A stretch of DNA of 64,000 bases, taken from the IMG/VR virus record IMGVR_UViG_3300045988_033140, positions 41,447 to 105,446 of that record, one strand, 5' to 3'. A program made the translations under genes and the position numbers. Positions 1 through 55,312 of this stretch are shown here, in pieces; position 1 is the first letter of the stretch; each line of letters begins with the position of its first letter. The stretch comes from a virus. A model generated the notes under the pieces. That model saw nothing but the letters and a program-made list of their open reading frames with translations. It was not told where the DNA came from and did not search any database.

Positions 1-1653
1 TGGATAACCGTAACTACTCGTGGATGTATCACCTAAATACATGATACGCGTAGCATTACTAGTATAATAACTATACGCAAAATTCTTACCTTGGGTACAT
101 TCTGCTTTACTAATAGAGCTATTAGCAACAGATAATGGAGAATAAGAATCAAGACCAAATTCTCTTTCTGAAAGCAAGAATACTGTTTCATCATTATAAG
201 TTACATCGCCATTACGAGAACTATTAGTAGATGGACAAGTGCCTTTTTTAATAGTCTTAATAGAGGCTTTACCGGGAAAAGCGTTATAATAGTTTTGACA
301 TAGACTTCTAGCAGTAGAACCAATCCAAACTGCGTTACTACCGAAAGAGGTATACTGGGATAAGCAGTTCTTAGTCTGGAACGTAACTGTATTATTAGCA
401 TCTTGATCTACGCCGATAACTCTAATTAAGTGAGTAGTAGTACCTAAAACTGGGCTCGAAAGCGTTACAGATTTAGTTGTGCCAAGAATAGCACCGCCAT
501 TACTAGTTTTAATAGAGGTGCCAGTATGAGAAGCAAGATAGTTCTTTAAACCAGCAAACCATGCCGCATCAACAGTACCACCATCAGCGCCCCAAGACCA
601 ATATTCTGCGCTAACAGTAATAGTCTTACTAGAAGGCGCAGTATGGTTAGTGCCTGCAGCGACGCTAATGGTAATAGTTTTTGCGGAAACCGCAGTAGAA
701 CCATTACCTTTAATAGTAAGAGTATTGCCATTAAGAGATAAGGTCAAACCAGAAATACTAGTAGGACTATAGCTAATAGCACCATTGCCCGCGCGAGTAA
801 TAGTAACAGCTACGCCGGAGCTATAGTTATTACCATTAATGGCTACTATCGTTGGACTTACACTCAAACTACCTGCCGCCTTGTTGATTGTCCAATTAAC
901 ATTGATTGCGGTAGTGGTTCCGTCCGTCCAGCGATAGTTACTACCGGGCGTAAAACTAGCTGCATAAGTCCCCGCATTAGTAGCAGATGTAGTACCACCA
1001 ATAGTCATGTAACTAGTGTTATAGTTATTCCAATAACTGGTGCTATTGATGGATTGCGGATTCCCGTTATAGGTAAGATTATTCTTCCACGTAGGTTTAG
1101 CTATAGATTTACGATTGACTGTAACATTAAAAGTCGCAGTTTGAGTAACTCCATTTTCTGTGTAGCTAACTGTAACTACTTGATTTCCAATAGTTGAAAA
1201 AGTTTTTGGAGAGCAAGAATAACTAGTTACCGGTTTAGTCTGAGAATCGGAATAACTAGCAGTAACAACCATACCAGTAGTAACTAAAGTATCTCCATAC
1301 TCATAGGTTAACTTATTAGGTTTAGTAGTTATAGTAATCGCGGAGAGCCTATGCGTGACTGTGACTGCTAGAGTCGTAGTGCAAGTTTCTCCGCCTTCAG
1401 AGTAAGTGATGGTTACGGAAGTAGTACCATCAGTTAAGACGCTAGGGGATACAGAATATCCACTAACTTCTGCGGTTGCTAGAACCGCTTGCCCAGTACC
1501 GTAAGATGCGGTAACGACCATACCGGCGCTATTGAAGCTGTCGCCCGCAAGATAGCTGGTCTTAGTAGGCTTAGTGGTGACTTCGATCTTCATAAGAACG
1601 ATGCCGCTTCCTCCACCTTTTCCGCCTTGCTCAGCTAAAATACACTTAGGCAA
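1..1653 (-). CDS. Tail fiber / receptor-binding-like protein with repeated Ig-like (Big_2-type) domains; partial, runs off the window start
   Basis: Hand translation of the minus strand from 1653 gives an uninterrupted >540-aa frame with no stop of any kind. It has repeated ~80-aa modules (TKPTKTSYLAGDSFNSAGMVVTASYGTGQ..TVTVT). Start is TTG at 1653-1651, 8 nt after a GGAGG. The track ORF 1574..1801 lies antisense to this frame and is considered spurious. Confidence 0.55.
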   Translation of the reverse strand, partial: MPKCILAEQGGKGGGSGIVLMKIEVTTKPTKTSYLAGDSFNSAGMVVTASYGTGQAVLATAEVSGYSVSPSVLTDGTTSVTITYSEGGETCTTTLAVTVTHRLSAITITTKPNKLTYEYGDTLVTTGMVVTASYSDSQTKPVTSYSCSPKTFSTIGNQVVTVSYTENGVTQTATFNVTVNRKSIAKPTWKNNLTYNGNPQSINSTSYWNNYNTSYMTIGGTTSATNAGTYAASFTPGSNYRWTDGTTTAINVNWTINKAAGSLSVSPTIVAINGNNYSSGVAVTITRAGNGAISYSPTSISGLTLSLNGNTLTIKGNGSTAVSAKTITISVAAGTNHTAPSSKTITVSAEYWSWGADGGTVDAAWFAGLKNYLASHTGTSIKTSNGGAILGTTKSVTLSSPVLGTTTHLIRVIGVDQDANNTVTFQTKNCLSQYTSFGSNAVWIGSTARSLCQNYYNAFPGKASIKTIKKGTCPSTNSSRNGDVTYNDETVFLLSEREFGLDSYSPLSVANSSISKAECTQGKNFAYSYYTSNATRIMYLGDTSTSSYGYP

Positions 1654-1907
1654 GATTATAACCTCCTTCGTATCTAGCTCTTTTAAAAATGCCAAAAGAT
1701 TTTCCGAGAAAAAGTACACTTTTTTATGGGAAAAATACTTCCAGAAACTAGATAATAAAAAATTGGGAAAAAGGTATAGAAACCCTTTTCCCTTCAAGTA
1801 GGTATCTTACCTTTTCAGATATACATAAAAAACAAGCTAAGAAAATTATTTATGATTGACCAAAGCCCAGTTAAGTGTACTTTTTTGAAGATGAAAGGAG
1901 AATTAAA

Positions 1908-2201
1908 GTGAGCTTAAAATGTATTCTGCAAGATCAATAGATTAAACCAATAACATTTACTGTAACACTTTTTGCTAATAATTGGATTGATAATAAACAA
2001 ATTATTGAAAATAATAATTTTATTGTAAATAAATATGCATATATAATTAGTCCAACAGGAGATAGTTTTCTCGCTTGTAACAATGCAATTGTTTATATAG
2101 ACAATGTAGTTGAAACTGGTAAAATAACATTTCATTGTATTGAACCTCCTTCAACAGATTTAATAATGAATGTTTTAAAAACGGAGGTAATAACATTATG
2201 A
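1908..2201 (+). CDS. Hypothetical 97-aa protein; contains one in-frame TAG read as Gln
   Basis: GTG start 7 nt after GAAAGGAG. The frame stays open through a TAG at codon 11 to a TGA that overlaps the next ATG (ATGA), indicating translational coupling. Confidence 0.4.
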
Positions 2202-3478
2202 GTTTAGTTTTTTATATGAGCGGTGGAGGAAGTAATATTCGTCTATCAAAAATTGAAATTATTTCACCACCAGAAAAAATAAATTATAAACATGGAGAAC
2301 AATTTTCTTCTGCGGGAATGACTGTGCGGGCAACATACAGTAATGGCGCTACAAGGATGGTTACTGACTTTACGTGTTTACCCAGTAGAGCGCTGAAATT
2401 TACAGATGAAAAAATCACTGTAGTTTACGCAGAAAATGGTATTACCAGGAGTGCAGAGCAGTCGATCAGCGTGGGGTCTCCCGTTGTTATCACGGACGTA
2501 AGACAGCTACCATACACTTACAATCTAAAGGGCTGCGGCAAGTATAATAATCAATATCTGATGGTCGGCAACGACGCAAGCTGGAACATATATGGGACGA
2601 TTGCTCCTGTGAGCGGGCAGGTCAACAACTTTAAAATGAATGTATCAGGAACATATCCTGCTGCGGGTATGCTTGTAACTGACACACGCATTGATATCCC
2701 TATAACAAACAAGTATGGCGGTACGCTCTATAAAAATCGGTATAAGATTGCTCTTACAGTAGCTGACTTCTTAGCAAAAAAGCAAGGATTTCAGGTCACT
2801 ACTGGTGCCAATATTCGCATGAATTGCGTCACCGAGGGCGACAATGGCTATATTTATACGGGTGGTAAAGGCGCAAATGAGGAATCCTGCATCGCCTATG
2901 TGTCCAAATCAGCGGCGGTAACTACAAACCTGGCAGTACGGAACTTCGGATCGTATGGCGAAATCATTGACATTGCGTCCTGCAAGGATTCTACTGGTGC
3001 AAGTCACTTGGCGGCGTTAACAGAAAATAACAAAATTCTGTATAAAGATTTGGGTGCCAGCGGGGAACTAAACGGGTCTTTTATTACTCAGGCCCACACT
3101 ATGGTAAAAATTGGAATGTTACCAGATAACACGGAGATGTATCGCTGTGCCATCGTCCACAAAGAATCGAATAATAATTTTTATTTATATTCTCAGAACC
3201 CAAATAGTCCGGGCAAGAACAGTTACCCCGCAATTGCGTCAGGTGACAGCACCATCTTAGGTGTTGGGGCAATTGATAACTATGCAATTGTAGTCTTTGC
3301 TGATGCCGCAGGAAATGCGAAAATTTACGTTAATGAAGATTGGGAAAATGGTAAAACATATTCATTGGGTGCCATGGCTCCTCTTGCCATGTGTAAAATT
3401 GAAAATGGTATTGGTGTGATTTGTAAAACAAATACAGCCAATACATTAGTTATTAAAGAAATTACTTTAACAACATGA
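2198..3478 (+). CDS. Structural protein with N-terminal Ig-like (Big_2-type) domain; putative tail fiber / receptor-binding protein
   Basis: Intact 426-aa ORF with GGAGG 10 nt upstream. The N-terminus (IEIISPPEKINYKHGEQFSSAGMTVRATYSNGATRMVTDF) resembles the repeats of the divergent gene at 1..1653. Confidence 0.55.
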   Translation: MSLVFYMSGGGSNIRLSKIEIISPPEKINYKHGEQFSSAGMTVRATYSNGATRMVTDFTCLPSRALKFTDEKITVVYAENGITRSAEQSISVGSPVVITDVRQLPYTYNLKGCGKYNNQYLMVGNDASWNIYGTIAPVSGQVNNFKMNVSGTYPAAGMLVTDTRIDIPITNKYGGTLYKNRYKIALTVADFLAKKQGFQVTTGANIRMNCVTEGDNGYIYTGGKGANEESCIAYVSKSAAVTTNLAVRNFGSYGEIIDIASCKDSTGASHLAALTENNKILYKDLGASGELNGSFITQAHTMVKIGMLPDNTEMYRCAIVHKESNNNFYLYSQNPNSPGKNSYPAIASGDSTILGVGAIDNYAIVVFADAAGNAKIYVNEDWENGKTYSLGAMAPLAMCKIENGIGVICKTNTANTLVIKEITLTT

Positions 3479-3498
3479 TTACTGAATAATTTTACCAA

Positions 3499-3538
3499 AA
3501 AATTTGGCAAAGTTGTTAAATCAACTTTGCCAAATTTT
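3499..3538 (+). terminator. Perfect 17-bp inverted repeat (AAAATTTGGCAAAGTTG-ttaaat-CAACTTTGCCAAATTTT) followed by TTTTCATT; terminator or operator-like palindrome
   Basis: Seen directly, 20 nt after the stop of 2198..3478. A related TTGGCAAAA motif recurs twice at 4660-4690. Confidence 0.4.
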
Positions 3539-3561
3539 CATTATATAATGAGGTGATAAAG

Positions 3562-4167
<606 letters not shown>

Positions 4168-4216
4168 TCAATCTTCCTTTTGTTTGATATATTATATACA
4201 ATAAGGAGGAATTATT

Positions 4217-4600
4217 ATGCCAGAAATTGTGATTCAAATTATCCAGGTGTGTGTTATTCCTTTACTCGGTATCTTGACTAAATTCCTCGTGGATTATTTA
4301 TCCGCAAAACGAGATGAAATTAACTCTAAGACCGACAATGAGATTGCTCAGAAATATACCAATATGATTTATCAGACTGTCGTTGATTGCGTTATTGCAA
4401 CCAATCAGACCTATGTAGATAGCTTGAAGAAATCTGGAAGCTTCGATGAAGCAGCTCAGAAGGAAGCATTTAACCGCACAATGAACGCTATTATGACTAT
4501 TCTAAGTGACGATGCTAAGGAATATATTACCGAAGCTACAGGTGACTTAAATACTTATCTCACTCAGTTAATCGAGGCCGAGGTTAATAAGCGTAAATAA
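4217..4600 (+). CDS. Holin_LLH-family protein (phage holin superfamily 6-like), single N-terminal TM
   Basis: 127-aa ORF with AAGGAGG RBS and an N-terminal hydrophobic helix. The conserved LKKSGSFDEAAQKEAF block is typical of LL-H-type holins. Confidence 0.5.
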   Translation: MPEIVIQIIQVCVIPLLGILTKFLVDYLSAKRDEINSKTDNEIAQKYTNMIYQTVVDCVIATNQTYVDSLKKSGSFDEAAQKEAFNRTMNAIMTILSDDAKEYITEATGDLNTYLTQLIEAEVNKRK

Positions 4601-4608
4601 CAAGAAAA

Positions 4609-4640
4609 AGGGAGCCTAATAGGCTCCCTATATTTTTTTT
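4609..4640 (+). terminator. Rho-independent terminator (AGGGAGCCT-aat-AGGCTCCCT + T9)
   Basis: GC-rich hairpin followed by a T-run immediately after the 4600 stop. Confidence 0.75.
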
Positions 4641-4745
4641 TCAAAAAAATTGGCAAAATTTTTGGCAAAAATGTAAAATCGTCCATAGACGATTTTCATA
4701 TACTAATGAAAGGTCAAAGGAAATATTTTTAGGAGGTAAAAAATT

Positions 4746-5144
4746 TTGGCAACTAATTATCCATACTATCCACAGCAACCTATGTATCCAAGACCAGGTA
4801 TTCAATATGTGGATCAGACCTAGCCGCAAATGGGTATTAAAGGCCGGCCTGTATCTTCTATTGAAGAGGCCCGTGCCATTAGCATTGATTTCGATGGCTC
4901 TGTATTTTATTTTCCTGATTTAGCAAATAGACGTATTTATACTAAACAAATAAACATGGATGGCACAGCCAGTCTTAATGTTTATGAGCTAAAGAATGAG
5001 CCAGTCGTCAGCTCTCCTCAGTATGTTACTAGAGAAGAGTTTGAGACTACATTAGCGCAATTAAAACAAGCTATGTTAGGAAAGGAGCCAGAATCTCAGC
5101 CCGCATCGGTATAGCCGCAGTAGACTGAGAAATTTAAGTTTTAA
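4746..5144 (+). CDS. Hypothetical Pro/Tyr/Gln-rich protein, 132 aa, 3 in-frame TAG (Gln)
   Basis: TTG start 9 nt after AGGAGG. The frame is open through TAGs at codons 26, 126 and 129 and ends at TAA. The track shows only the 4830..5114 fragment. Confidence 0.45.
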
Positions 5145-5157
5145 GGAGACATGAATT

Positions 5158-5391
5158 ATGAACCCAATGCAACTTATCCAAATGCTTAGGAGTGGACAGA
5201 ATCCTTAGCAACTCGCTATGAATCTGCTAGAAAGCTAGATGGGTGAGACCCCAATGGGTCAAAACCTTTTAAATCTAGCCAAGAATGGTCGATCCGCAGA
5301 TATTGAGCAAATTGCTCGTAACTTAGCTAAACAATAGGGAATAGATTTCGACAAAGAATTTGCCGCCTTTAAAGAGATGCTTGGCCTTTAA
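5158..5391 (+). CDS. Hypothetical 77-aa protein with 3 in-frame TAG (Gln)
   Basis: ATG 9 nt after AAGGAG. The translation MNPMQLIQMLRSGQNP[Q]QLAMNLLES[Q]MGE...AKQ[Q]GIDF is a plausible small helical protein. It ends in TAA. Confidence 0.45.
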
Positions 5392-5418
5392 TCATCTTAT
5401 TAAAGGAGGAACATTTTT

Positions 5419-6270
5419 ATGTTCAATAATTCTAATGGCTATAGTCTAGCTGATATTGCGGCTGCTACTGGTGGTAACAACCGCAATGACGGTATGTGGG
5501 ACAACGGTGCGTGGTGGATTATTATCCTCTTCCTCTTCTGTTTCAACGGTGGTATGTGGGGTAATGGTTTCGGTCGCGGCATGGGCGCTGGATCTCCTGC
5601 ATATCAAGGAACTACCACTCGTGAAGAAATCGCTTATGGTTTTGATATGAATGGTTTACAAAATAGTATTCGTGGCGTACAGCAAGGCCTTTGCGATGGT
5701 TTCTATGCAATGAATACTGGAATGTTAAATAATTTTGCAGGTGTTAATAATGCAGTATGCTCTCTCGGTTATCAGACTGCTCAACTTGCTAACGGTTTAA
5801 CCTCTGATATTGTAGCTAATCGTTTTGCTGCACAACAGGGTGTATGCCAGGTTGAAAATGCTATCAATCAGGCTCGTTATGATAATACTATTGGTCAGAA
5901 TAGTATTGCTCGTGAGATTTCTGATTGTTGCTGCGAGAATGGTAGAGCTCTAGAGCGTGGTTTTGCTGATGTTAACTATAACATGGCTACTAATACTTGC
6001 GCTATCCAGACCTCTATGGCAAATCACACCCGTGACATTATCGACAGTCAGAATGCTGGCACTCGTGCTATCCTTGATTATCTCTGCCAGGAGAAAATCT
6101 CTGATCTCCAGAGTGAGAACCAGGCTCTCCGCCTTGCTGCATCTCAGCAAGCTCAGAACAACTATCTGGTCAGCCAGCTCGGCACTAAAGCACCTGTTCC
6201 CGCCTATGTGGTTGCAAACCCATACTGCAACTGCGGGACCGCAACTTATGGTTGCGGCTTAACTGCCTAA
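5419..6270 (+). CDS. Hypothetical 283-aa protein with one TM segment and a Gln/Cys-rich C-terminal region
   Basis: Intact ORF with AAAGGAGG RBS. No TAG despite 30 Gln codons. Confidence 0.5.
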   Translation: MFNNSNGYSLADIAAATGGNNRNDGMWDNGAWWIIILFLFCFNGGMWGNGFGRGMGAGSPAYQGTTTREEIAYGFDMNGLQNSIRGVQQGLCDGFYAMNTGMLNNFAGVNNAVCSLGYQTAQLANGLTSDIVANRFAAQQGVCQVENAINQARYDNTIGQNSIAREISDCCCENGRALERGFADVNYNMATNTCAIQTSMANHTRDIIDSQNAGTRAILDYLCQEKISDLQSENQALRLAASQQAQNNYLVSQLGTKAPVPAYVVANPYCNCGTATYGCGLTA

Positions 6271-6329
6271 ATTAACCTATAAGGGGAGAGTAATCTCCCC
6301 TTATATTAAAAACAAGGAGGATTTGTATT

Positions 6330-6752
6330 ATGGAAATTACCGCTAATGCTGTGCAAACAGTCGCGGCTAATCAAGATGTTTTATTCACAAATGTTGCTAT
6401 CGCAGGCAACTCTTCTACCGTTCATCGTAGCGGTAGTGGTCAAGTAACTTTAAGAGGTTTGACTAATTGCCAGTGTCGTGCGCGTTTTCGCGTGTCCTTT
6501 GGAGGTAATATTGCGGTTCCCGCGGATGGTACTGCTGGGCCAATTTCATTAGCTATTGCTATTGATGGTGAACCTATCAATACCACTACCATGATTTATA
6601 CGCCAACCGCAGTTAGCACTTATGGTAATATTTTTGGTGCTATCTTTATTGATATTCCACGTGGATGCTGTGGAAAAGTAAGCGTAAGAAATATCTCTAC
6701 TATTCCAGTAAGTGTTCAAAATGCTAATCTAATTGTTGAAAGGGTGGCTTAA
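6330..6752 (+). CDS. Hypothetical protein with possible C1q/TNF-like (BclA C-terminal-like) jelly-roll domain
   Basis: Intact 140-aa ORF with AAGGAGG RBS. Sequence style (VLFTNVAIAGNSS..GQVTL..ISLAIAIDGEPINTT..NANLIVERVA) resembles BclA-CTD/C1q trimeric tips. Weak call. Confidence 0.35.
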   Translation: MEITANAVQTVAANQDVLFTNVAIAGNSSTVHRSGSGQVTLRGLTNCQCRARFRVSFGGNIAVPADGTAGPISLAIAIDGEPINTTTMIYTPTAVSTYGNIFGAIFIDIPRGCCGKVSVRNISTIPVSVQNANLIVERVA

Positions 6753-6755
6753 TTT

Positions 6756-7325
6756 ATGGAACGACTAAAGCATATGGAAGAAGTCTTGATGGGCTGTGTT
6801 CAGGCACAGTTAAGTCATCTTGATACAGTAGATACTGAGGAATTAGGTCAGGCTATTAATATGATTAAAGACCTTGAGCAGGCTAAGTATTACTGCTCTA
6901 TTGTCAAGGCAATGGAAGAAGCCGAAGAGGACGAAACTAAAGAAAAGAGCCATCACCATAGAGATATGGATAGAGTATATGGAAGAATGTATTATGAGGG
7001 TCCAGACGGCCGTTATCCATGGAAAAAGCGCGATCGCGATGAAGATTGGGAGAGTTATCCTTATTATCCTGAACGTGGACGCGAGATTGATATTCGCGAT
7101 TCTCGCGAAGGCCGCAGTCCAATAACTCGTCGTATGTATATGGAATCTAAACAACTCCATAAAGATAAGACAGAAAAGGTTAAAGAATTAGAGAAGTATA
7201 TGCAGGAACTCTCTGAGGACATCGTAGAAATGATTGATGGAGCTTCTCCAGAAGAGCGTCAAGTTCTAGAGAAGAAAATGACTAGCTTGACCAATAAGAT
7301 CGCGCAGTTAAACCTCAATGCTTAA
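6756..7325 (+). CDS. Hypothetical acidic coiled-coil protein (189 aa)
   Basis: Intact ORF, highly charged (E/D/K/R-rich). Confidence 0.45.
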   Translation: MERLKHMEEVLMGCVQAQLSHLDTVDTEELGQAINMIKDLEQAKYYCSIVKAMEEAEEDETKEKSHHHRDMDRVYGRMYYEGPDGRYPWKKRDRDEDWESYPYYPERGREIDIRDSREGRSPITRRMYMESKQLHKDKTEKVKELEKYMQELSEDIVEMIDGASPEERQVLEKKMTSLTNKIAQLNLNA

Positions 7326-7650
7326 TATTAACGGGGTAAGTTGGAGGATATTGCTAGTACCTCCAACTTCCTCTACTCTTGCTAGGAGCGATGGGTCATT
7401 AGCTTCTGGTGCTTGTGATAATGATACTAAATGTATCTATATCAATGAGAATCTTAATTCTTCTTTAATGAAGAGAGTGTTATGTCACGAAATAACTCAT
7501 GCTGCTATGTTCAGCTATGAAACTGATTTAACCGTTGAACAAGAGGAGCTATTAGCAGATTTAATAGCTACTTATGGACAGGAAATAATTTCTAAAACCA
7601 ATGATATATTTCAACGATTAAAAGCAAATAAAGGGGACTTGTCAAGTTAA
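7318..7650 (+). CDS. Putative Zn metallopeptidase domain protein (HExxH; ImmA/IrrE, M78-like)
   Basis: KCIYINENLNSSLMKRVLCHEITHAAMF matches the I-x-I-N..R..L-x-H-E-x-x-H arrangement of ImmA/IrrE-type peptidases. Its start overlaps the upstream gene by 8 nt. Confidence 0.4.
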   Translation: MLNINGVSWRILLVPPTSSTLARSDGSLASGACDNDTKCIYINENLNSSLMKRVLCHEITHAAMFSYETDLTVEQEELLADLIATYGQEIISKTNDIFQRLKANKGDLSS

Positions 7651-7670
7651 AGACAAGTCCCCTTTATTTT
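7633..7670. terminator. Bidirectional terminator hairpin (GGGGACTTGTC-aagttaaa-GACAAGTCCCC + TTTATTTT)
   Basis: 11-bp GC-rich stem followed by a T-run. It sits between the convergent genes ending at 7650 (+) and 7672 (-). Confidence 0.7.
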
Positions 7671-7671
7671 G

Positions 7672-8103
7672 TTATTCGGGTTTAATTGGTAGTTCCAATG
7701 CTAATTCGTAATATTCTTTAGCTTGACCATTTCCGCCTAATCCAGAATATATTCGATAAAACTCGCTTAATTGGTCATATTGCTCTTGCGTCATATAACT
7801 CTATTTAATATAAGCTTTACAAAGCTAAACCAAACGGAATTTATAAGACGAAATAATTAGCTGCATATGACTTTTCTCAATATCTTTAGTTTCCATGATA
7901 TATTTTCGAAGTTCTTCGATTTCTTTCTGAATCGGTTCAATACGAGAATCTATAGTTTTTTCTAACTCAGTGTCTTTACTCTCTTCAAGTAATTTTTTGT
8001 AATTCTTTAACTAGCTATGTAAGTATTTACAAAAAGCTAAGGCTCCCGCTGATACTAAGCCGAAAAAAATTTCAACTAAATGTTCAGCAATAAAAGTAAA
8101 CAT
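7672..8103 (-). CDS. Hypothetical membrane/coiled-coil protein, 143 aa, 3 in-frame TAG (Gln)
   Basis: ATG follows GGAAGGAGG. N-terminal TM (FIAEHLVEIFFGLVSAGALAF). 144 codons in frame end at TAA (7672) and include three TAG codons (after YLHS, RLV and AYIK). Confidence 0.5.
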
Positions 8104-8178
8104 AAAATCCTCCTTCCTTAAACCTCTCAAGAAATTTAAGAGTTAAGAAAGGAGGATTATTTTATTTAGACCGCATCC

Positions 8179-8658
8179 TTACCAAGCGCATTTATTCTTC
8201 TTGATATGATGTGTCCCGATACATACAGCATCCGCGATATCCTAGATAACATGGATACCATAATTCTATTCTACATATAGTTGAGCATTCTTTTTCTATT
8301 CTGCTCTTGTTCGACCCTTAATGCCTAAAGTAGATTTCCAAGATGCGGCGAGAACTGTTGAATGAGGAATCTGGATTTCTTGTAGTAACTCTGATACAAC
8401 TCCATAAACCTCTGCCAAGACCTTAAAGGTCTAAACATTATTAGCCACATTGTTCTATTGCTAAATATCTTCAAAGATTACTTCGTCGATATTATAATCT
8501 GCAACTAAAGTCTAAATACCCTATCGCAACTAAACTAGTCTAATATCAGTATTTGGATCATCTAAAGAAATCTTGCCGTAGGACTTCAATTCACCATCTT
8601 CAAAGATAGCCCACCCAGTAACCTTTGAGGCTTGGTCGAGGGCTAACAAGCGACTCAT
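8179..8658 (-). CDS. RuvC-like Holliday junction resolvase, 159 aa, about 11 in-frame TAG (Gln)
   Basis: MSRLLALDQASKVTGWAIFEDGELKSYGKI is a RuvC N-terminus with the catalytic Asp. Further acidic residues (IFED, DIADAV) sit at expected positions. Start overlaps the dUTPase stop (TAATG). 160 codons are in frame only if TAG is sense. The track ORF 8625..8984 (+) is considered spurious. Confidence 0.75.
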
Positions 8659-9224
8659 TACTTACTTGTAGAACCGAATCCGCCTACGCGCTCGCCTGTC
8701 GCAGCATCATCATCGGTTACTCCATAAGTATGAATAATTCCTTGCCCGATCTTATCTCCACGTTTAAGCTGAATAGCAAAAGGAGAAAGATTGATAATCT
8801 GGAAGAAGATTTCACCCTCATTATCAGGGTTATCGCAATAATCGGCGTCAATGATACCGATACTATTACCAATAATCAACCAATGCTTAAGAGGGGTAGA
8901 ACTGCGGGCACTCAGTTCGAGGTACTGACCAGGCTCAAGATGACACTTCATACCGGTAGATACAAGAGGAATTTTTGCTTTTAGTTCCTTAGTAAGAGCC
9001 GCCATTTCATCAAGAGAAAGCGGGTCAATAAAGCCATAGAAGTCTTCGTGGCGTTCCTTCTCAAATAAATCATCCTGAATCTTGGTTCTTAGAAAATCAT
9101 AGGGAGGAATCACAATATCCTCCGCTACTACAAAATCATAACCTGCGGAATTGGCGGTTGCACGAGTCGGCAGGGGTAGATCAACATCCGCAAAACGGGA
9201 AACTTTTTCGAAATAACAGCTCAT
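8658..9224 (-). CDS. dut: dUTPase
   Basis: Intact 188-aa ORF with trimeric dUTPase motifs (AGYD, GIIDADY, RVGGFGSTSK). Confidence 0.85.
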   Translation of the reverse strand: MSCYFEKVSRFADVDLPLPTRATANSAGYDFVVAEDIVIPPYDFLRTKIQDDLFEKERHEDFYGFIDPLSLDEMAALTKELKAKIPLVSTGMKCHLEPGQYLELSARSSTPLKHWLIIGNSIGIIDADYCDNPDNEGEIFFQIINLSPFAIQLKRGDKIGQGIIHTYGVTDDDAATGERVGGFGSTSK

Positions 9225-9723: not shown

Positions 9724-10064
9724 ACTTCAATCACCCCTTGTGTATAGTCAAACATGGCATACATTGAGCAAGTTTTATCTTGCTGAATCCAGAATTCGAC
9801 CATGTCATTTTGCACTTCGATGCCTTTTAAAACGCCCAATGTTTTAGCAACATCAATCATTTCAAAAGCCATCTTCTTTACATCATGCTCTTGATTATAG
9901 GTATATACAGTGTAGTATCTACCATCTACATTTAACATCATGTAGTATTTAGAGTCATGCTCAGTTAGAAACTGTTCAAGCTTTTCAGTTGCCCTGCGGA
10001 TTTCAGCCTTCGGCATCTTAGGAAGCTTGTTATAAGCAATCTAGTTCATTTCATATAAGGTCAT
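9720..10064 (-). CDS. Hypothetical protein (114 aa; N-terminus extended through 1 TAG relative to the track ORF)
   Basis: ATG with AAAAGGAGA RBS at 10064. It reads MTLYEMN[Q]IAYNKLPKMPKAEIRR... in frame with the track ORF 9720..10016. Confidence 0.4.
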
Positions 10065-29205: not shown

Positions 29206-29517
29206 TCAGTTATCGTCTCCCACAGTATTTGTGTATCCTACAATGTTAAATTGATCGAGCCATCCATCTAGTTCATCAATAACAGCAATACATTTCATAC
29301 CTCTCGCTTTTGTTAGAAAATATCCATAGCTAATAAATCCTAAATTCTGCGGTAGATTACGCTCTTTTGTTAATTCTAAGAACTTTTTAACCATTAGTTG
29401 AGGATGTTGAGTAACAAAGAGCACCATCTTATCAGGATATTTATATGCTAAATCATTTGCATAGCGCATTAAGCTAGTTGTCTTGCCTGCACCACGACTC
29501 GCAATCACTTTAAACAT
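29206..29517 (-). CDS. Small P-loop NTPase (103 aa), function unknown
   Basis: P-loop SRGAGKTT. Confidence 0.4.
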   Translation of the reverse strand: MFKVIASRGAGKTTSLMRYANDLAYKYPDKMVLFVTQHPQLMVKKFLELTKERNLPQNLGFISYGYFLTKARGMKCIAVIDELDGWLDQFNIVGYTNTVGDDN

Positions 29518-30431
29518 TATGAACCTCCACGAGTGCTATTTAATCCATAGTCTTTTGTTTTATAGAAGTCAATCCAATAAGTTTCACGTTCATTTAATGA
29601 AGCTCTAGGGACTTCTTCTAATACTTCAAAGATAAAGTTATACTATCCAGATTTTTGCATTGTTTGATAAAGCTTATTAGTGGCAGGCCCATATGCTAAA
29701 GAAGACTTGATATGCTATCTAAATCGTTCTTTAATATCAACAGACTAACCGATATAAGCCTACCCAGTTGTTAAATCGGTAATTTTATAGATGCCGCAGA
29801 CCTTCGTTGCTTTAGAGAATAATCTTGTCATAAGCGTATCATACGAAGGTTTATAATAAGTTTCCCAAATTAGCTTATCTATTGCTTCTTTCTTAAAGAA
29901 ACGCTTCTATAATTCACGGAGCAATTCAATATCACTAATATCTATTTCATCAATAGCCAGACGATAATAATCCTAATCTGCGGCAATCGCTTCTTGGCGC
30001 TATTGAGCCTAGATATAAGATAACTATTTAGCCTCCAATTCATGGAGTTTATCTTGCTAATGTGAAATTTGATTAGTTATCTACTGAAGTTCTGCTAAAT
30101 GATATTTTTCTTTAGCTTGATATGTTTCATCAAGCTCTTTACTTTTCTTTTCAAATTGAGCCTTAGCGCTCTCTTCCGCTCGCTATTCAGCGCTTTCCCG
30201 CAACTTATTCGCAGTATCGTTTAAAGAATTGACAATTTCATTATGTGATATAATATCTTCTTTTACTTTTGCTAATTCTCTCTATTTCAATGCAATATCT
30301 TGTTCAATACGTTTATTTTCTTCTTGTCTTTCTTTATTTATCAATACTACCTAAAGCCGATTATTGCGGAGATATAAAACATATCCTATTAACGCAAGAA
30401 TAACCAAGCCTGATAATATATAATAAATCAT
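29517..30431 (-). CDS. GIY-YIG nuclease-domain protein (N-terminal TM + coiled coil + C-terminal GIY-YIG), 304 aa, about 14 in-frame TAG (Gln)
   Basis: The C-terminus reads GIYKITDLTTG[Q]AYIG[Q]SVDIKERFR[Q]H..ETYWIDFYKTKD, with the canonical YIGQS motif encoded by TAG. 305 codons are in frame to a TAA that overlaps the next ATG. No listed track ORF corresponds to this frame. Confidence 0.7.
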
Positions 30432-37199: not shown

Positions 37200-37523
37200 T
37201 TAGATGGTTGCCTCATCCTCGATTATCTGCTGCTATTGTTGCTCACACATAGCTAAATCATAGGTAATTCCACCCTTGCGGTGATCAGATTTACTCATAT
37301 TTAAGTAAAAAGAACAAACAATACCATGCGCAGACCAGGGTAATCCTACTAATGCACTAATCCATGGAAGAGTGCCTAAATAGCCAAGATGTACGCAATA
37401 GAAAGCAAGAGCAATACCAGAGATAGTTACAATCCACAATAAAGAGCGAATATCGCAAATAAGTTGTTTAGAAAATTCTCTTTTCTAGTTGTGTCTTCTT
37501 TTTCCTCTTGTTTGACGAGTCAT
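37200..37523 (-). CDS. Holin-like small membrane protein (107 aa, 2 TM), 2 in-frame TAG
   Basis: ATG overlaps the endolysin stop (TAATG). TM segments WIVTISGIALAFYCVHLGYL and LPWISALVGLPWSAHGIVCSF, with a charged C-tail. The track shows only the 37233..37439 fragment. Confidence 0.5.
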
Positions 37524-38930
37524 TATTGACCACTCTTTTCAGCATAACGTTTTAGAACGGCTGCAAATTCGCCGCGAGTCATAAAACGCTTTGGCATTAA
37601 TTGACCCTTTTCATTGCCATTGATTAAGCCATTAGCTTGTGCCCAAGTCATCGCATCTTGTTCCCAAGTAACTGGTTGCGCAGCGAGCTGGCTTAAATAT
37701 ACATTCATCATTTCGTTGAATTTCTCTTGAGTCATATCTTCATCATCCTCCTCGATAACTTTAGACTGCATTAAAGCAGCAACATCTTTGCGAACAGTCG
37801 TCATATCTTTGCCATATTTCTTGAACCAGTGGTATACATCGGCATGATTACTGCCGAGACCCAACTGATAACTATCCTGATGACAGAGAATTGTTGGGAC
37901 TGTTACGCCATTTACATTTACAAAACCATTTGGATTGATATTATATGTTTTACATAAATAAGCTGTCAATTCGCAAGCTTCTTGGTAAACTTTAGCGAAG
38001 TAGTTGGGATCACTTAGATTGTCTTCGCAAATTTCAAATTGAATCCATCCAGTATTACAACTACCTTTAGACCCTGAGCCGCAACCCCAAGGTCTATAAT
38101 TCCAAGGTAACGTTTGTACTGCGGCTACACTTCCATCAGCAAGAGCACCAATCCAAGCGTTTACACCCGCTTGCTATGAGCTATGATTCCAATCGGTTCT
38201 ACTGGTATTTTTACCAATTTTAGCAATCAGAGATTGATAATTTTTATCATTCTCAGATGGTTGGACATAACGCTTAATAGTTTTATTATTAGCTCCTGTG
38301 CTATGCCAGAGTACACCTTTAATATCCATTTTACGGGTTTGTTTATAACAGGTACTATTAGTCATCATGCAAACCAATGGTTGATTGGCGTTTGAATATT
38401 TCATCTTAGCCATTTCCTCCTTTTGCGTTGAATATGTATTGAAATAACGTTGGCTGTATAAAGCCCGCTGTTTTAGCGCATCGGAACTTTGATCTGCCGG
38501 TCGTTCAAACTGAGTGACCACTAAATTAGATGCTTCTTCAACAGATGAGGTAGTCTTTAAGATTTTTAATAGCTAGGAATAACTTGTAGTTAGTTCCTGA
38601 TATAAAAAATCTAGTTGAGTGTTCAAGTCACCAATAGACTTTCCTCGACTTTTACACAGCTAAAACAGACCTTGTTTGCGGCTCTAATATGTCCATTGAG
38701 CTAAACCATATCCAGCAGAATCATGCGTGAAATTGGTATAGGAACCATTATCAACAGCCGCAGTATACGAGGCATCGTTCATTCCTAACTTGCTCTCATA
38801 TGAGTTCTATAAGTTAGTTGGAATAAGTCCACTTTCCGCGAATAGATTCCCCATTAGACCTGCGGCGCCGCAGTTATTTAATCCTTTTGATTTGAGATAA
38901 TCCCAAATAACTTGAGCATTATCTGCCAAT
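37523..38930 (-). CDS. Endolysin: Phage_lysozyme2-like domain + N-acetylmuramoyl-L-alanine amidase (Amidase_2) + C-terminal SLH domain; about 5 in-frame TAG
   Basis: TTG start 8 nt after GGAGGTGAGG. The N-terminal domain reads GNLFAESGLIPTNL[Q]NSYE..GYGLAQWTY[Q]SRKQGLF[Q]L..ELTTSYS[Q]LL..EASNLVVTQFERP. It continues in frame through TAG into the amidase_2 region and the SLH domain (WEQDAMTWAQANGLINGNEKGQLMPKRFMTRGEFAAVLKRY). The two track ORFs 38174..38521 and 37523..37969 are fragments. Confidence 0.75.
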
Positions 38931-38961
38931 AGCCTCACCTCCAATTAGGGTATAAAAATAG

Positions 38962-41156: not shown

Positions 41157-42653
41157 TTACTCCTTATTAGAGGAGTCTGCCAACTTGCCACCGAGAAAAC
41201 CGGTGAGCAAGGTTTTCACATCAATACCGAGGGATTCACTCAGTCCCTCAGAAACCTGAGCGACATTCTTGATAATGTTGCCAGACAGTTTGCTGGTGTC
41301 ATCACCAAACATTACAATCTTGTCAACATTGGTGTACGCCTGACCGGTAGCCTGAGCAATAGCAGGCAACTGCTGGAAGTACAGCTTGAGGGCTTCCATC
41401 TGCATATCCATCTTGGCAGCTTCGCCATACTGCTTCATGGCTTCTGCCTTCTTCATAAGGCCTTCAGCTTCTGCCTCAGCCTTAGCCTGAATCGCGGCAG
41501 CCTCAGCTTCACCACGAGCCTTAGTAGCCGCAGCTTCTGCTTCGCCCTGAACACGAACAGCCTCAGCTGTAGCACGCTGGGCTTCAGCTCTCTGCTCTGC
41601 TTCAAAACGCTCGGCTTCAGCGGTTTTCTGACGCTCATATAGGTCTGCTTCAGACTGCTTCTGAGTAGCGTATAGCTTAGCATCAGCTTCCTGCTGAGCC
41701 GCATACTTCTTGGCTTCCGCAGTCTTCTTAACCTCGGCCTCCAAAGCACGCTCTTTAATGGCGACTTCGCGCTCCTTCAGGTCAATCTCCTTTTCCTGAC
41801 GAGCAATGTCAGCATCTGCCGCGGCCACATCGCGCAGTTTACGCTGGTTCTCAGATTCGATTTCCATAGCAGCGTTAGCCTGAGCCTGCTTGGTATCCGC
41901 CTCCTGCTTCAACTGAGCCTTCTGAATAGCCAGACTGTTATTACGCTTGGCAATCTCTTCCTCAGCCTTCACGCGGGCATCATTAGAAGCCTTAGCGTTT
42001 TCAGCCTCGGCCACTGCGATCTCGCGCTGGGCGTTAGACTTAGCAATTGCGGCGTCCTTGCGGATCTGCTCGACGTTATCAATACCGAGATTGGTGATAA
42101 CATCATTGTCATCAGAGAAGTTCTGGACATTGAAAGAAACCAGCTCCAGACCAAAACGAGCCAGGTCAGGTACAGCATTTTCCTGTACCTTTTCGGAGAA
42201 GGCCTTGCGGTCGCCGACCATTTCAGTTAGCTTCATCTGGCCCACAATCTCACGAATATTGCCTTCCAAAAGATCGTTAATCTTCTGTGCGATCTGATCG
42301 CGAGAGACATTTAGGAAGTTCTGAGCAGCAAGAGCAATCATCTCTTCACTCTGACCCACGCGTACAGAAACGGTAGAATCGACTCGCACATTGATGTATT
42401 CAGCCGTCGGCACGGCAGAGCCAGTCTTAACATCAATCTGAATGGCTCCTAGTGCCAGCTTATCCAGTCGCTCCAAGAAGGGAATCTTGATGCCAGCCTT
42501 ACCGACCAAAATACGAGGTTTCTTGTGCAGACCAGAAATGATATAGGCAACATCAGGTGGAGCCTTTACATAACCAGAAGCCAAGAGGGCGATAAGAGCA
42601 ATAGCAATAATCACCACAGGAACAAAAGGAAGAATAGTCATCAAAATTTCCAT
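41157..42653 (-). CDS. SPFH/band-7 (flotillin/YqiK-like) membrane protein; GC-richer than average
   Basis: N-terminal TM, SPFH core, and a long Ala/Glu/Lys/Gln-rich coiled-coil C-terminal half. 498 aa. Confidence 0.7.
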   Translation of the reverse strand: MEILMTILPFVPVVIIAIALIALLASGYVKAPPDVAYIISGLHKKPRILVGKAGIKIPFLERLDKLALGAIQIDVKTGSAVPTAEYINVRVDSTVSVRVGQSEEMIALAAQNFLNVSRDQIAQKINDLLEGNIREIVGQMKLTEMVGDRKAFSEKVQENAVPDLARFGLELVSFNVQNFSDDNDVITNLGIDNVEQIRKDAAIAKSNAQREIAVAEAENAKASNDARVKAEEEIAKRNNSLAIQKAQLKQEADTKQAQANAAMEIESENQRKLRDVAAADADIARQEKEIDLKEREVAIKERALEAEVKKTAEAKKYAAQQEADAKLYATQKQSEADLYERQKTAEAERFEAEQRAEAQRATAEAVRVQGEAEAAATKARGEAEAAAIQAKAEAEAEGLMKKAEAMKQYGEAAKMDMQMEALKLYFQQLPAIAQATGQAYTNVDKIVMFGDDTSKLSGNIIKNVAQVSEGLSESLGIDVKTLLTGFLGGKLADSSNKE

Positions 42654-53274: not shown

Positions 53275-54539
53275 ACTTCGTCCTGTGCCTCCTCCATATC
53301 GGGAGTAGTCTCAGTCTCTTTGATAATACCCTCAAGTACCTTGAACTCGTAAGTCTTAGACTTGAAAGCAGTGAAGGTGCGGCGGTTAACGATACGAACC
53401 ACAACGCCCTCTTTAACATGAGTTTTGCCGATAGGATCGGCCAAGTCCTCGAAATACTTGTTAATGCGGTCCTGCAAGTCCTCGGCAGTAGTGAACTTGA
53501 AGTTCTCAATCACCGGGACACGATTAAAGCCATGCTTCTCACACCAAGCAGTAATCTCGTCAGGAGTCCACTCGCGCTGACCATTCTCGGAAGTAATGCG
53601 ATAAATCCACATATGAGACTCACCGGGCTTGCAGCCGTAGGAGAAGATAGACTTCTTACCGAACAACTTTTGGAAAGCCTTATCTTTTAGCTTGGAGTTA
53701 TCGCCGATAGGCATGATGGTATCGTTCTCAGAGGGACCGTAGTACCCCACTACCTCGTAAAAGACCTCCATACCAGGATCAAGATGGGGTTTCAATGCCT
53801 CATGGTGAGACATACGAAATAGATCATTGCCGTAGTAGCCCTGAGAGTTCTCAGTTACAACGCAACGGCGCGTACCGAGAACATAAGCCTGCTTCAGACG
53901 CTTCTTCATATGGAATAGACGACGGAAGAAGCCATTAGGTAGCTCAGCAAAGGTGTTCATGGATCGCTGAGAAGTGCCATGCATCTTAAGAGTCATATTC
54001 AGCTCATCGCCGGGACGGAACTTATCCAGATTGTATGCAAGCTGCTCGGTGTCAGTGTGCATTGCAAACTCAGGATAGGTAATACCCTCTGCCTTACGAC
54101 CCTTGTAGGAAGTCTTAGGAGTGGTGCTCGGAGTCTTACGCTTAGGGATATACTTACGGCAGAACTCCTTGCCATTGATAGTATTTACCTTATTTCCGTT
54201 CTTCCAATGCTGATTGCCAAAAACCTCATAGACACGCTCAAGAGAGATGACGATGCCAGAACTCTCGTTGCCACGAAGCTTGATAGCCCGCACGTGAGAG
54301 CTATTTTCCAAGTATCCGCCTTGAGGAGTGCCATCAAGATTCTTCCGATATAGGGTGAAAGCGTCACCGAACCATCTCTCGATCTCTCCGTCCGTAGGAA
54401 GATAAAGCACTAACTCATTCTCCTTCATATTGGGTCCAACAATAACACCTTCATTAAAACAATCTGCCAACCACAGATTATCAGAATTAGGATCTTTATG
54501 GAGATTATTCAGTTTTGTCACTAGAGCGTAATAAGCCAT
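53271..54539 (-). CDS. ATP-dependent RNA ligase (Rnl2/Rnl5-like nucleotidyltransferase with KxHG motif)
   Basis: Motif I LKMHGTS matches T4 Rnl2 (KIHGTN). N-terminal OB-like domain. 422 aa. GC-richer than surroundings. Its 5' end overlaps the upstream homing-endonuclease gene by ~38 nt, so the true start may be internal. Confidence 0.55.
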   Translation of the reverse strand: MAYYALVTKLNNLHKDPNSDNLWLADCFNEGVIVGPNMKENELVLYLPTDGEIERWFGDAFTLYRKNLDGTPQGGYLENSSHVRAIKLRGNESSGIVISLERVYEVFGNQHWKNGNKVNTINGKEFCRKYIPKRKTPSTTPKTSYKGRKAEGITYPEFAMHTDTEQLAYNLDKFRPGDELNMTLKMHGTSQRSMNTFAELPNGFFRRLFHMKKRLKQAYVLGTRRCVVTENSQGYYGNDLFRMSHHEALKPHLDPGMEVFYEVVGYYGPSENDTIMPIGDNSKLKDKAFQKLFGKKSIFSYGCKPGESHMWIYRITSENGQREWTPDEITAWCEKHGFNRVPVIENFKFTTAEDLQDRINKYFEDLADPIGKTHVKEGVVVRIVNRRTFTAFKSKTYEFKVLEGIIKETETTPDMEEAQDEV

Positions 54540-55254
54540 TTAATTCCTGTTCCTCCTCTTTACTAATTCGTTTATAGATAAAACCTTTATATGTATTTCT
54601 CTATCCATTTAATACTCGATAAATTGCTTTATCGGTCTTTGCTTCTGGGCAAAATTCTCGATACGCCGAAATTGCAGTAGGAAAAATAGCTAATAATTGA
54701 CCATCTTTATCATACTTGGCAATCGGCTATCTTCTTGCTTCCAGTGCCTTTTTCTTTGCATCTTCTCGATGACCATCTTGATAAGCTTGCTTTAATTTTT
54801 CACTTCGCTCTTCTTTTAAGGAAGGATTGTCGATAAACTTCTATTTTAGAGAGTTGCTAATCTTTTCATTTCTTTCGTGACTATAAGTCCGATTTTTAGC
54901 AGCTAAAGTCATATGTCGTCGATATTCTGGATCCTCCCATAGCAACTTAACAGATTCGCCTATCTATTTTCTAACTTCTTCCGTTTGATAATTTCCGCCC
55001 GGAGAGACATTGTAACCAAAATCTGTATCTAAAAGATTTAATTCTTTGATTGTGTCTATCTCTTTTTGTTGAATTAAATCTTCATTATCAGACTCTAATA
55101 TCACTTCTTTAGTTACATTTTCCCAGCCATATTTTTCTATAGCATATCCGACGCGCTATCCTTTATATCTTCCTGATGCTCGCTGTTCGATAGAATTTTT
55201 AGTAATTCCGCAGTATTTTTTCCCATTTGGGAAAGTGTATAAATAACAGATCAT
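54502..55254 (-). CDS. Free-standing GIY-YIG homing endonuclease (I-TevI-like with NUMOD-like region), 250 aa, about 7 in-frame TAG
   Basis: ATG 8 nt after AGGAGG. The N-terminus reads MICYLYTFPNGKKYCGITKNSIEQRASGRYKG[Q]RVGYAIEKYGWENV. It is followed by NUMOD-like KNRTYSHERNEKISNSLK[Q]K. The frame is open only if TAG is sense. No listed track ORF corresponds to this frame. Confidence 0.65.
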
Positions 55255-55312
55255 CTAAATAACCTCCTAAATCTTTCTACTTATATTAAAAGTCATTAGG
55301 AGGTTATTTAGA
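55255..55312 (-). promoter_or_regulatory. RBS-sequestering stem-loop (16-bp perfect inverted repeat CTAAATAACCTCCTAA/TTAGGAGGTTATTTAG) immediately 5' of the homing-endonuclease ATG
   Basis: The 3' arm contains the AGGAGG of the endonuclease gene. The hairpin also sits 20 nt past the upstream gene stop, so it may double as a terminator. Confidence 0.45.

Follow-up and report, generated by a model that had tools for sequence, protein, structure and literature searches.

The 64,000-nucleotide stretch of phage DNA analysed here (the window; positions 41,447 to 105,446 of IMG/VR record IMGVR_UViG_3300045988_033140) carries two divergent tail-fibre genes near its left end, and the space between their start codons holds a non-coding segment of about 160 bp bounded by a short inverted repeat. 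In related phages this segment exists in both orientations, with the breakpoints inside the repeat. It appears that the locus is a phage-encoded inverton that chooses between two alternative tail-fibre genes, a reading to which a probability of roughly 0.68 is assigned. A small serine recombinase encoded downstream of the second fibre gene is the presumed invertase. DNA-inversion control of the fibre genes had been raised in an initial annotation of the window; structural variants in related phages bear the idea out, but at sites other than those that had been flagged. The features described in that annotation are all present, in place or nearly so.

The phage is a large (~140-150 kb) gut phage that reads TAG as glutamine. 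Its locus was compared with 25 loci in IMG/VR whose recombinase is 92-96% identical to that of the window, and all of these are collinear with window positions 1-1944 and from 3477 onward. More distant relatives, on contigs of 120-155 kb, have recombinases that are 73-88% identical; they include L166 (the 73% lineage) and L170 (the 80% lineage). Gene order is kept in these distant relatives, running leftward from the switch through fibre 1, a small gene and a reverse transcriptase, and rightward through a variable fibre 2, the recombinase, a holin-like gene and accessory genes. No relatives were found among the 185,579 species genomes of GTDB, and none of 50,697 deposited phage records is a close relative of the group.

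The invertible segment between the fibre genes

The elements of the switch and the two genes that it separates are as follows.

1..1653, minus strand: fibre 1, the 5' part of a tail-fibre gene of ~590 aa, cut by the window edge
1709..1725, no strand: left crossover site (IRL), AAAAAGT-AC-ACTTTTT(T), a 7-bp dyad with an asymmetric central AC at 1716-1717
1709..1886, no strand: invertible segment including its repeats, ~161 bp between crossover centres, with the promoter-like end facing fibre 2
1765..1792, minus strand: hairpin GGGAAAAGGG..CCTTTTTCCC followed by UUUUUU on the minus strand, terminator-like
1801..1817, no strand: conserved block GGTATCTTACCTTTTCA, a possible accessory-protein site or promoter element
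1856..1883, plus strand: putative hybrid promoter, with a -35-like TTGACC (1856-1861), a 16-nt spacer and a -10-like TACTTT (1878-1883) inside the right crossover site
1873..1886, no strand: right crossover site (IRR), AAGT-GT-ACTTTTTT, the inverse of IRL
1938..3476, plus strand: hypervariable fibre-2 cassette, left boundary at 1938-1944

To the left of the segment fibre 1 starts at 1653 on the minus strand, and to its right the fibre-2 cassette starts, divergently, at 1908 on the plus strand. The segment is bounded by a 13-bp inverted repeat, AAAAAGTACACTT, at 1709-1721, whose inverse copy stands at 1873-1885, and these are the only two exact copies in 64 kb. One repeat pair is present per locus or 64-kb window, and the pair is kept in six lineages. 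In the 73% lineage both repeat arms have changed together, to AAAGTACACCTT and AAGGTGTACTTT. Each copy is a dyad with an asymmetric centre, which is what would be expected of a serine-recombinase crossover site. The initial annotation was therefore wrong in finding no convincing crossover sites, since they are at 1709-1725 and 1873-1886. Nor is the unit that flips a segment around 1.6-4.7 kb, as had been suggested, but this short non-coding one. The repeats were found through the comparison of relatives; in an inverted-repeat search of window positions 1-9000 they were not among the top 25 pairs.

Direct evidence of inversion comes from contigs that differ in the orientation of the segment. 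L171 and L172 represent the same phage as L170 from other samples, with flanks that are 99.7-100% identical, and the 175 bp between the fibre genes of L170 is the exact reverse complement of that in L171 and L172, with overlaps of 12 bp where the repeat lies. A junction built from the window on the assumption that its segment flips occurs verbatim in two metagenome contigs, L173 and L174. In L173, window positions 1709-1885 align inverted at 95% identity while the flanks are collinear, and the match to a window flipped in silico is approximately base for base. L174, part of a 147-kb contig, shows the same flipped junction. The inversion breakpoints of L170, L173 and L174 all fall within the repeat. 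In other words, flanking inverted repeats, both orientations in nature and breakpoints in the repeats, the features that characterise an inverton, are all found here.

Indirect support comes from five contigs from five sequencing runs (L188, L189, L190, L204 and L207) that begin or end exactly at IRR. Such breaks are the expected signature of mixed orientations in one sample because assemblers halt where both orientations occur. Among distinct contigs, ~39 have the orientation of the window, 3 are flipped and 5 are broken at the repeat.

What does the segment carry? The blocks conserved across lineages are both repeats, the hairpin, the GGTATCTTACCTTTTCA block and the -35-like box. The box has the form T[TG][GA]NCC-AA and stands a fixed 16 nt upstream of TACTTT in six lineages. 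TACTTT reads in the outward direction in both repeats, so inversion would rebuild the same -35/-10 pair facing fibre 1. The hairpin (dG = -16.9 kcal/mol, z = -3.4) is conserved in all lineages, including L175 (where T-runs flank it on both sides), L194 and L202. On neither side was a conserved outward promoter found in the stretch from repeat to fibre start codon, and the distance from IRR to the fibre-2 start is 22 nt. Judged by these elements, the segment is probably a hybrid flip-flop promoter backed by a terminator.

These elements suggest a mechanism. The neighbouring Sin-like recombinase would cut at the central AC/GT dinucleotides of IRL and IRR and invert the segment between them. With a -35-like box at one end of the segment, a terminator at the other and a TACTTT -10 supplied by whichever repeat adjoins the box, each orientation would build one outward promoter, directed at fibre 2 in the window state and at fibre 1 after inversion. 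With such a switch, progeny of differing receptor specificity would come from a single genotype.

Another candidate for the crossover sites was the DNA similarity between the fibre N-termini (AARTGTATTTT...). It was rejected, since none of the breakpoints falls there and likeness of the encoded peptides accounts for the similarity. In one relative (L025, at 9950-10040) the sequence corresponding to window 1874-3906 is missing, so that IRR, all of the fibre-2 cassette and the recombinase's catalytic half are gone. L025 is a naturally locked variant. The deletion was considered as a product of the recombinase and rejected, its junction lying 5 bp off the site centre at a TTA microhomology.

The recombinase and the two fibres

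The recombinase gene occupies the following position.

3562..4167, plus strand: small serine recombinase, 201 codons, GTG start, ribosome-binding site GAGGTGA, GRPR arm

The open reading frame has 7 in-frame TAG codons and no TAA or TGA. It is intact when TAG is read as glutamine, and its product then matches the Pfam Resolvase family (PF00239) with E = 1.6e-28 (100 bits, cutoff 23.3). The catalytic motifs YARVSS and SIDRLGR(N) are intact. In-frame TAG codons stand where homologues have glutamine, which is the mark of genetic code 15: the orthologues in L166 (73%) and L170 (80%) have no TAG and carry glutamine at 5-6 of the 7 window TAG positions, and in the alignment with the resolvase Sin glutamine occupies 4 of the 6 aligned TAG positions. 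The recombinases of close relatives have 0, 3, 6 or 7 TAG codons at varying glutamine positions. Pairwise dN/dS (the ratio of nonsynonymous to synonymous substitution rates) is 0.01-0.06, indicating strong purifying selection. The gene is, on this evidence, functional with TAG meaning glutamine, because the frame is a single one without other stops, orthologues have glutamine at the TAG positions and dN/dS is 0.01-0.06. In this lineage the recombinase would be translatable only with TAG read as glutamine.

TAG codons are concentrated in few genes of the window, most of them encoding enzymes that cut or join DNA, and most replication genes and both fibre genes have none. The clustering may reflect timing control, protection from toxicity or a horizontal origin. 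A tRNA search of the window found none, so a suppressor tRNA is not in the window, and no Rfam family matched it. Among the genes rich in TAG are the following.

8179-8658, minus strand: RuvC-like gene, 9 TAG
29517-30431 and 54505-55296, minus strand: GIY-YIG protein genes, 14 and 7 TAG

The closest relative of the recombinase among solved structures is Sin (PDB 2r0q, E = 3e-33), followed by the gamma-delta (E = 9e-22) and Tn3 resolvases, with Gin (E = 4e-16) further away. It matches PHROG_125 with E = 5e-51, a family whose label, 'DNA invertase', is no more than an annotation. Against the Mpi family model it scores 48 bits, far below the cutoff of 272. The sequence is closer to resolvases than to the Fis-dependent invertases of the Hin/Gin kind. 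The GRPRK motif occupies residues 149-153, the Sin alignment reaches residue 179, and no Pfam helix-turn-helix model was reported. The protein can be described as a Sin-like small serine recombinase by sequence that appears Hin-like by context: it is syntenic with the switch in all lineages of this group and is the only recombinase noticed at the locus. In the binding of Hin to hix, the GRPR minor-groove arm pairs with an A-tract next to the site centre, and the GRPR arm of the recombinase would fit the A-tract beside the centre of the crossover sites, by resemblance only.

The nearest recombinase among the deposited phage records has about 57% identity. Distant homologues with 55-58% identity (MT835780, MT836284) were examined and set aside, as they lie in unrelated contexts and lack the switch. 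Two database proteins that contain the recombinase (P0006 and P0007, 249-299 aa) bear a precomputed Pfam Dockerin_1 tag besides Resolvase.

Fibre 1 starts at a TTG codon at 1653, preceded by the ribosome-binding site AAGGAGG, and its N-terminus reads MPKCILAEQGGKGGGS. The immunoglobulin-like (Ig-like) repeats reported for it are there as two Big_3 domains, accompanied by DUF6273. As far as the comparison of relatives tells, a diversity-generating retroelement (DGR) has fibre 1 as its target; the variable repeat stands just outside the window on the left, ending 7 nt before position 1 when template and variable repeats of relatives are compared. An RVT_1 reverse transcriptase lies downstream of fibre 1 in relatives. 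The mismatches between template and variable repeat are all at template adenines, 23 of 23 in L002 and 22 of 22 in L009. Adenine-only differences and an adjoining reverse transcriptase, which together define a DGR, are thus seen in relatives; the window itself begins to the right of these elements.

L002:5206-5308 and 5934-6036; L166:3197-4312: DGR regions in relatives, with template/variable repeats and RVT_1

Fibre 2 varies in a different manner. Window positions 1945-3476 are replaced by unrelated sequence in every close relative, the flanks being 90-97% identical, and 10 cassette types occur among 23 relatives. In relatives the cassette gene opens with ten identical codons (MSLKCILQGQ), continues as a varied fibre-like protein and is followed by a DUF4376 / PHROG_1348 gene; the cassette proteins of relatives match tail-fibre PHROGs and DUF4376. 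The cassette of the window is unique among related loci and contains two genes.

1908..2201, plus strand: first cassette gene, 97 aa, 1 TAG, with an ATGA overlap with the gene at 2198
2198..3478, plus strand: second cassette gene, 426 aa, with a GGGS linker, a Big_3-like Ig domain and then an unassigned C-terminal part

The 97-aa gene had been missed in the initial annotation. Only its first 10 codons (MSLKCILQDQ) are common to relatives, and they resemble the N-terminus of fibre 1; the remainder of the protein has no homologue in the related loci compared. The gene at 2198..3478 had been taken for an Ig-like-repeat fibre. Its N-terminal domain is indeed homologous to the Big_3 domain of fibre 1 (BLASTP E = 2e-15), but the protein gave no family hit in Pfam or PHROG and has no relative in IMG/VR. 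It is the putative receptor-binding protein of the fibre-2 cassette.

The N-termini of the two fibres are alike in every lineage, with MPKCILAEQGG... in fibre 1 and MSLKCILQGQ... in fibre 2. In the window the motif is found at 1626-1653 on the minus strand (MPKCILAEQ) and at 1908-1937 on the plus strand (MSLKCILQDQ), the latter on the separate 97-aa reading frame. The shared N-terminal K-C-I-L..Q peptide suggests that both fibres probably compete for one virion attachment point. Fibre 1 is diversified by the DGR, and fibre 2 passes between phages as a cassette.

A coding inversion of the Mu type was considered for the cassette and rejected, since no cassette with inverted fibre parts was found and cassettes show no minus-strand match to each other except at a palindrome described below. 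The commonest cassette protein (L002:7947-9317) opens with a sequence that resembles, by eye, a dockerin/EF-hand repeat (DIDGDGKITENDRNRISEHLGG). In L192-L196, whose recombinase is 75% identical, the fibre-2 region and the recombinase are separated by a NAGPA-like (PF09992) gene on the minus strand, so a gene of opposite orientation can occupy the cassette slot too.

The palindrome and competing explanations

Two sets of repeats had been put forward as possible binding sites of the recombinase or a regulator.

3499..3538 (arms 3499-3515 and 3522-3538), no strand: palindrome forming a terminator-like hairpin, arms with TTGGCA / TGCCAA
4609..4670, plus strand: intrinsic terminator (hairpin 4609-4629 and T-run) followed by tandem TTGGCAAAA boxes at 4650-4670

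The palindrome is perfect, as described: its arms are 17 nt long and 100% complementary. Its RNA fold has dG = -22.8 kcal/mol (z = -7.3) and is followed by UUUUCAUU, and it overlaps what is probably the promoter region of the recombinase gene. Both the window family and L175 have kept it, and the two substitutions seen in the window family both keep G-U pairing. The counterpart hairpin in L170 has the same outer GGCA/TGCC and the same 18-nt spacing with a different, compensatory interior, and L166 has a different hairpin at this position. The direct TTGGCAAA repeats exist downstream of the holin-like gene, but at 4650-4657 and 4662-4669, slightly to the left of the 'about 4660..4690' first reported. 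The first tandem box forms a promoter-like TTGGCA-18-TAAAAT at 4650 for the operon that begins at 4746, and a promoter scan listed it. TTGGCA, TTACCA and TTGACC boxes all resemble -35 elements. TTTGGCAAA occurs 6 times in the window against 1.0 expected, with three copies (13955, 23626, 59869) inside open reading frames. A sigma-54 reading of TTGGCA was rejected because the GG-to-GC spacing, judged by eye, does not fit. The TTTGGCAAA elements are best read as transcription signals, namely a terminator that follows the cassette and promoters that serve the recombinase gene and the 4746 operon, and they may be operators as well. The palindrome would separate the fibre-2 cassette from the recombinase's own promoter, as terminator or insulator.

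On this reading the TTTGGCAAA sites look like a terminator hairpin and a promoter box and not like crossover sites, as the initial annotation had allowed. The idea that the palindrome and repeats are crossover sites, at which the 1.6-4.7 kb region or the fibre cassette would be inverted, excised or exchanged, can draw on the enrichment of the motif and on its location at the right-hand cassette boundary and after the holin gene. However, neither inversion nor excision between these sites was seen in any relative, the two copies run in direct orientation, the motif is absent from the left cassette boundary (1938-1944), and it has nothing in common with the repeats that demonstrably recombine. 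This explanation is very improbable. Less probable still is that the locus does not flip at all and the flipped contigs arose in assembly. In its favour, just 3 flipped assemblies were found and none is in IMG/VR, but the 13-bp repeat is far shorter than assembly k-mers, the same repeat breakpoints were reached in three samples and assemblers, and five more contigs stop at the repeat.

Two further explanations accept that the inversion is real and are unlikely to a similar degree. One of them holds that the segment flips a terminator or insulator: promoters would be fixed outside it, and orientation would set which fibre transcript stops. No other recognisable signal in the segment is as strong as the hairpin with its U-run, which every lineage has kept, and the T-runs on both sides of the L175 hairpin would suit such a role. 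What argues against it is that the gaps between the repeats and the start codons contain no conserved outward promoter, with only 22 nt available on the fibre-2 side, and that the -35-like box keeps its 16-nt distance from the repeat's TACTTT across six lineages. The other, marginally the less likely, assigns the inversion to a host enzyme or another phage enzyme and makes the recombinase a Sin-type resolvase that acts at the palindrome just upstream of its gene, for instance to resolve or circularise replicating genomes and to repress its own promoter. Sin is the best structural relative of the recombinase. Sin resolves directly repeated 86-bp res sites, which consist of a site I with inverted motifs, an HU/IHF site and a head-to-tail site II and lie directly upstream of the recombinase gene (PMC2428073); the palindrome and the tandem TTGGCAAA boxes superficially resemble that arrangement. 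The window has a single palindrome, however, and each related contig has one copy of the exact 20-mer that spans the left arm and loop. A distance of 1.1 kb separates the tandem boxes from the palindrome, where ~86 bp or less would be needed, and the compensatory change in the stem interior is of the kind seen in RNA hairpins. The 73% lineage lacks the palindrome, yet keeps both recombinase and switch, and recombinase and repeat pair co-occur in every lineage. The role in multimer resolution that had been suggested for the recombinase has no support, there being no second res-like site. A 14-mer scan with the palindrome arm gave mostly chance matches among those listed and was uninformative on second sites.

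Several observations weigh against the inverton as a recombinase-driven choice between two fibres. The closest characterised relatives of the recombinase are resolvases, with Gin further away, and it matches no NCBIfam equivalog; it can be called a presumed invertase. An accessory or enhancer site was not identified. The TACTTT of the putative promoter agrees with the -10 consensus at 3 of 6 positions, and a sigma-70 scan did not flag the promoter. The terminator and the promoter point in opposite directions, and what the terminator does is a guess. Orientation is strongly biased (about 39 window-like contigs against 3 flipped), the window itself presents one orientation only, and scans of IMG/VR for the flipped junctions of three lineages gave no match. 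If the toggle were strict, fibre 1 with its DGR would be off most of the time, so it may have another promoter.

Neighbouring genes, known systems and significance

Genes downstream of the recombinase, and the endolysin, are listed below.

4217..4600, plus strand: holin-like protein, 127 aa, PHROG_13712 with E = 9.5e-33
4746..7669, plus strand: accessory operon (4746..5144, 5158..5391, 5419..6270, 6330..6752, 6756..7325, 7318..7650)
37523-38944, minus strand: endolysin with Phage_lysozyme2, Amidase_2 and an SLH domain, 5 TAG

An LLH-type holin had been proposed; the PHROG match supports a holin, but the Pfam Holin_LLH match stays below threshold (17 bits vs 24.9). The recoded hypothetical genes noted earlier correspond to 4746..5144 and 5158..5391, with 3 TAG each, and the ImmA-like peptidase at 7318..7650 matches Pfam Peptidase_M78 (28.6 bits, cutoff 22) and has a HEITH motif. 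The accessory operon has a promoter-like region at its start and ends at a bidirectional terminator (7626-7669). The block (window 4717-7641) is absent from L018, and L019 lacks 5074-6960. The operon looks dispensable, because these relatives lack it wholly or partly and it comes with a promoter-like region and a terminator of its own. Neither a repressor nor an integrase was seen next to the M78-like gene, so that no lysogeny module can be recognised there. A remnant lysogeny module, which the initial annotation had listed among the possible roles, is unlikely because no integrase or repressor was seen, no relatives occur in bacterial species genomes and the M78-like gene sits in the dispensable block that L018 lacks. 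Strong Shine-Dalgarno sites and the SLH-domain lysin suggest a Firmicutes-type host with an S-layer.

How does the switch compare with known systems? It resembles the Hin/hix H-segment of Salmonella in its small serine recombinase, its putatively promoter-bearing segment and its short dyad sites with an asymmetric central dinucleotide, as well as in the A-tract beside the site centre and the GRPR arm of the enzyme. It differs in that the segment is ~160 bp instead of ~1 kb, the recombinase gene is outside the segment and 1.7 kb away, the -10 element appears to lie within the repeat, two divergent genes would be chosen where Hin turns one operon on or off, and the enzyme is closer to Sin than to Hin/Gin. 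The Gin/G segment of Mu, P1 Cin, e14 Pin and p15B Min likewise place a phage serine invertase beside tail-fibre genes and alternate the host range, but they swap C-terminal fibre coding parts within a 3-4 kb segment. Here no coding sequence is inverted, and a non-coding flip would select between two complete fibre genes.

The Sin/Bin3/beta resolvases of Firmicutes plasmids and transposons are the closest group in sequence, with the same catalytic and E-helix motifs (PDB 2r0q, residues 1-179), but the recombining sites here are 16-17 bp inverted dyads, and a res-like architecture was not found. The Mpi-type capsule invertons of Bacteroides share the short segment flanked by inverted repeats, here a putative promoter, and the occurrence of both orientations in metagenomes; the present switch differs in being encoded by a phage in which no lysogeny genes were seen and in controlling, as proposed, virion proteins. 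As in the DGR of Bordetella phage BPP-1 (mtd, avd, template repeat, brt), the C-terminal variable repeat of fibre 1 is paired with a downstream template repeat, adenine-specific differences and a reverse transcriptase. The difference is that the region upstream of the target is here shared with an invertible switch and with a second fibre of the cassette type.

Inversions that swap fibres are described for Mu-type phages in the literature searched, and promoter invertons for bacteria. For viral invertons it offers only a recent suggestion (PMC13501310), and it gives no description of this switch. What appears to be new is a non-coding, promoter-type inverton in a recoded phage without lysogeny genes that would choose between a DGR-diversified fibre and a cassette fibre. 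A bolder extension, which is tentative and rather doubtful as a whole, is that a gut phage without lysogeny genes stacks three host-range devices at one locus (a DGR, swapped cassettes and a self-encoded inverton), that its invertase can be made only once the phage has turned the cell to reading TAG as glutamine, that flipping would then come late, on replicating genomes, giving bursts of mixed fibres, and that this would be the first promoter-type inverton described as acting on virion proteins of a non-temperate phage.

If the choice between fibres is real, abundant gut phages would hedge between a mutagenised and an exchangeable fibre by flipping about 160 bp of DNA. This would bear on the prediction of host range, on the interpretation of 'strain' variation in metagenomes and on phage engineering, and the locus would also offer a compact, portable serine-recombinase switch with 16-bp sites.

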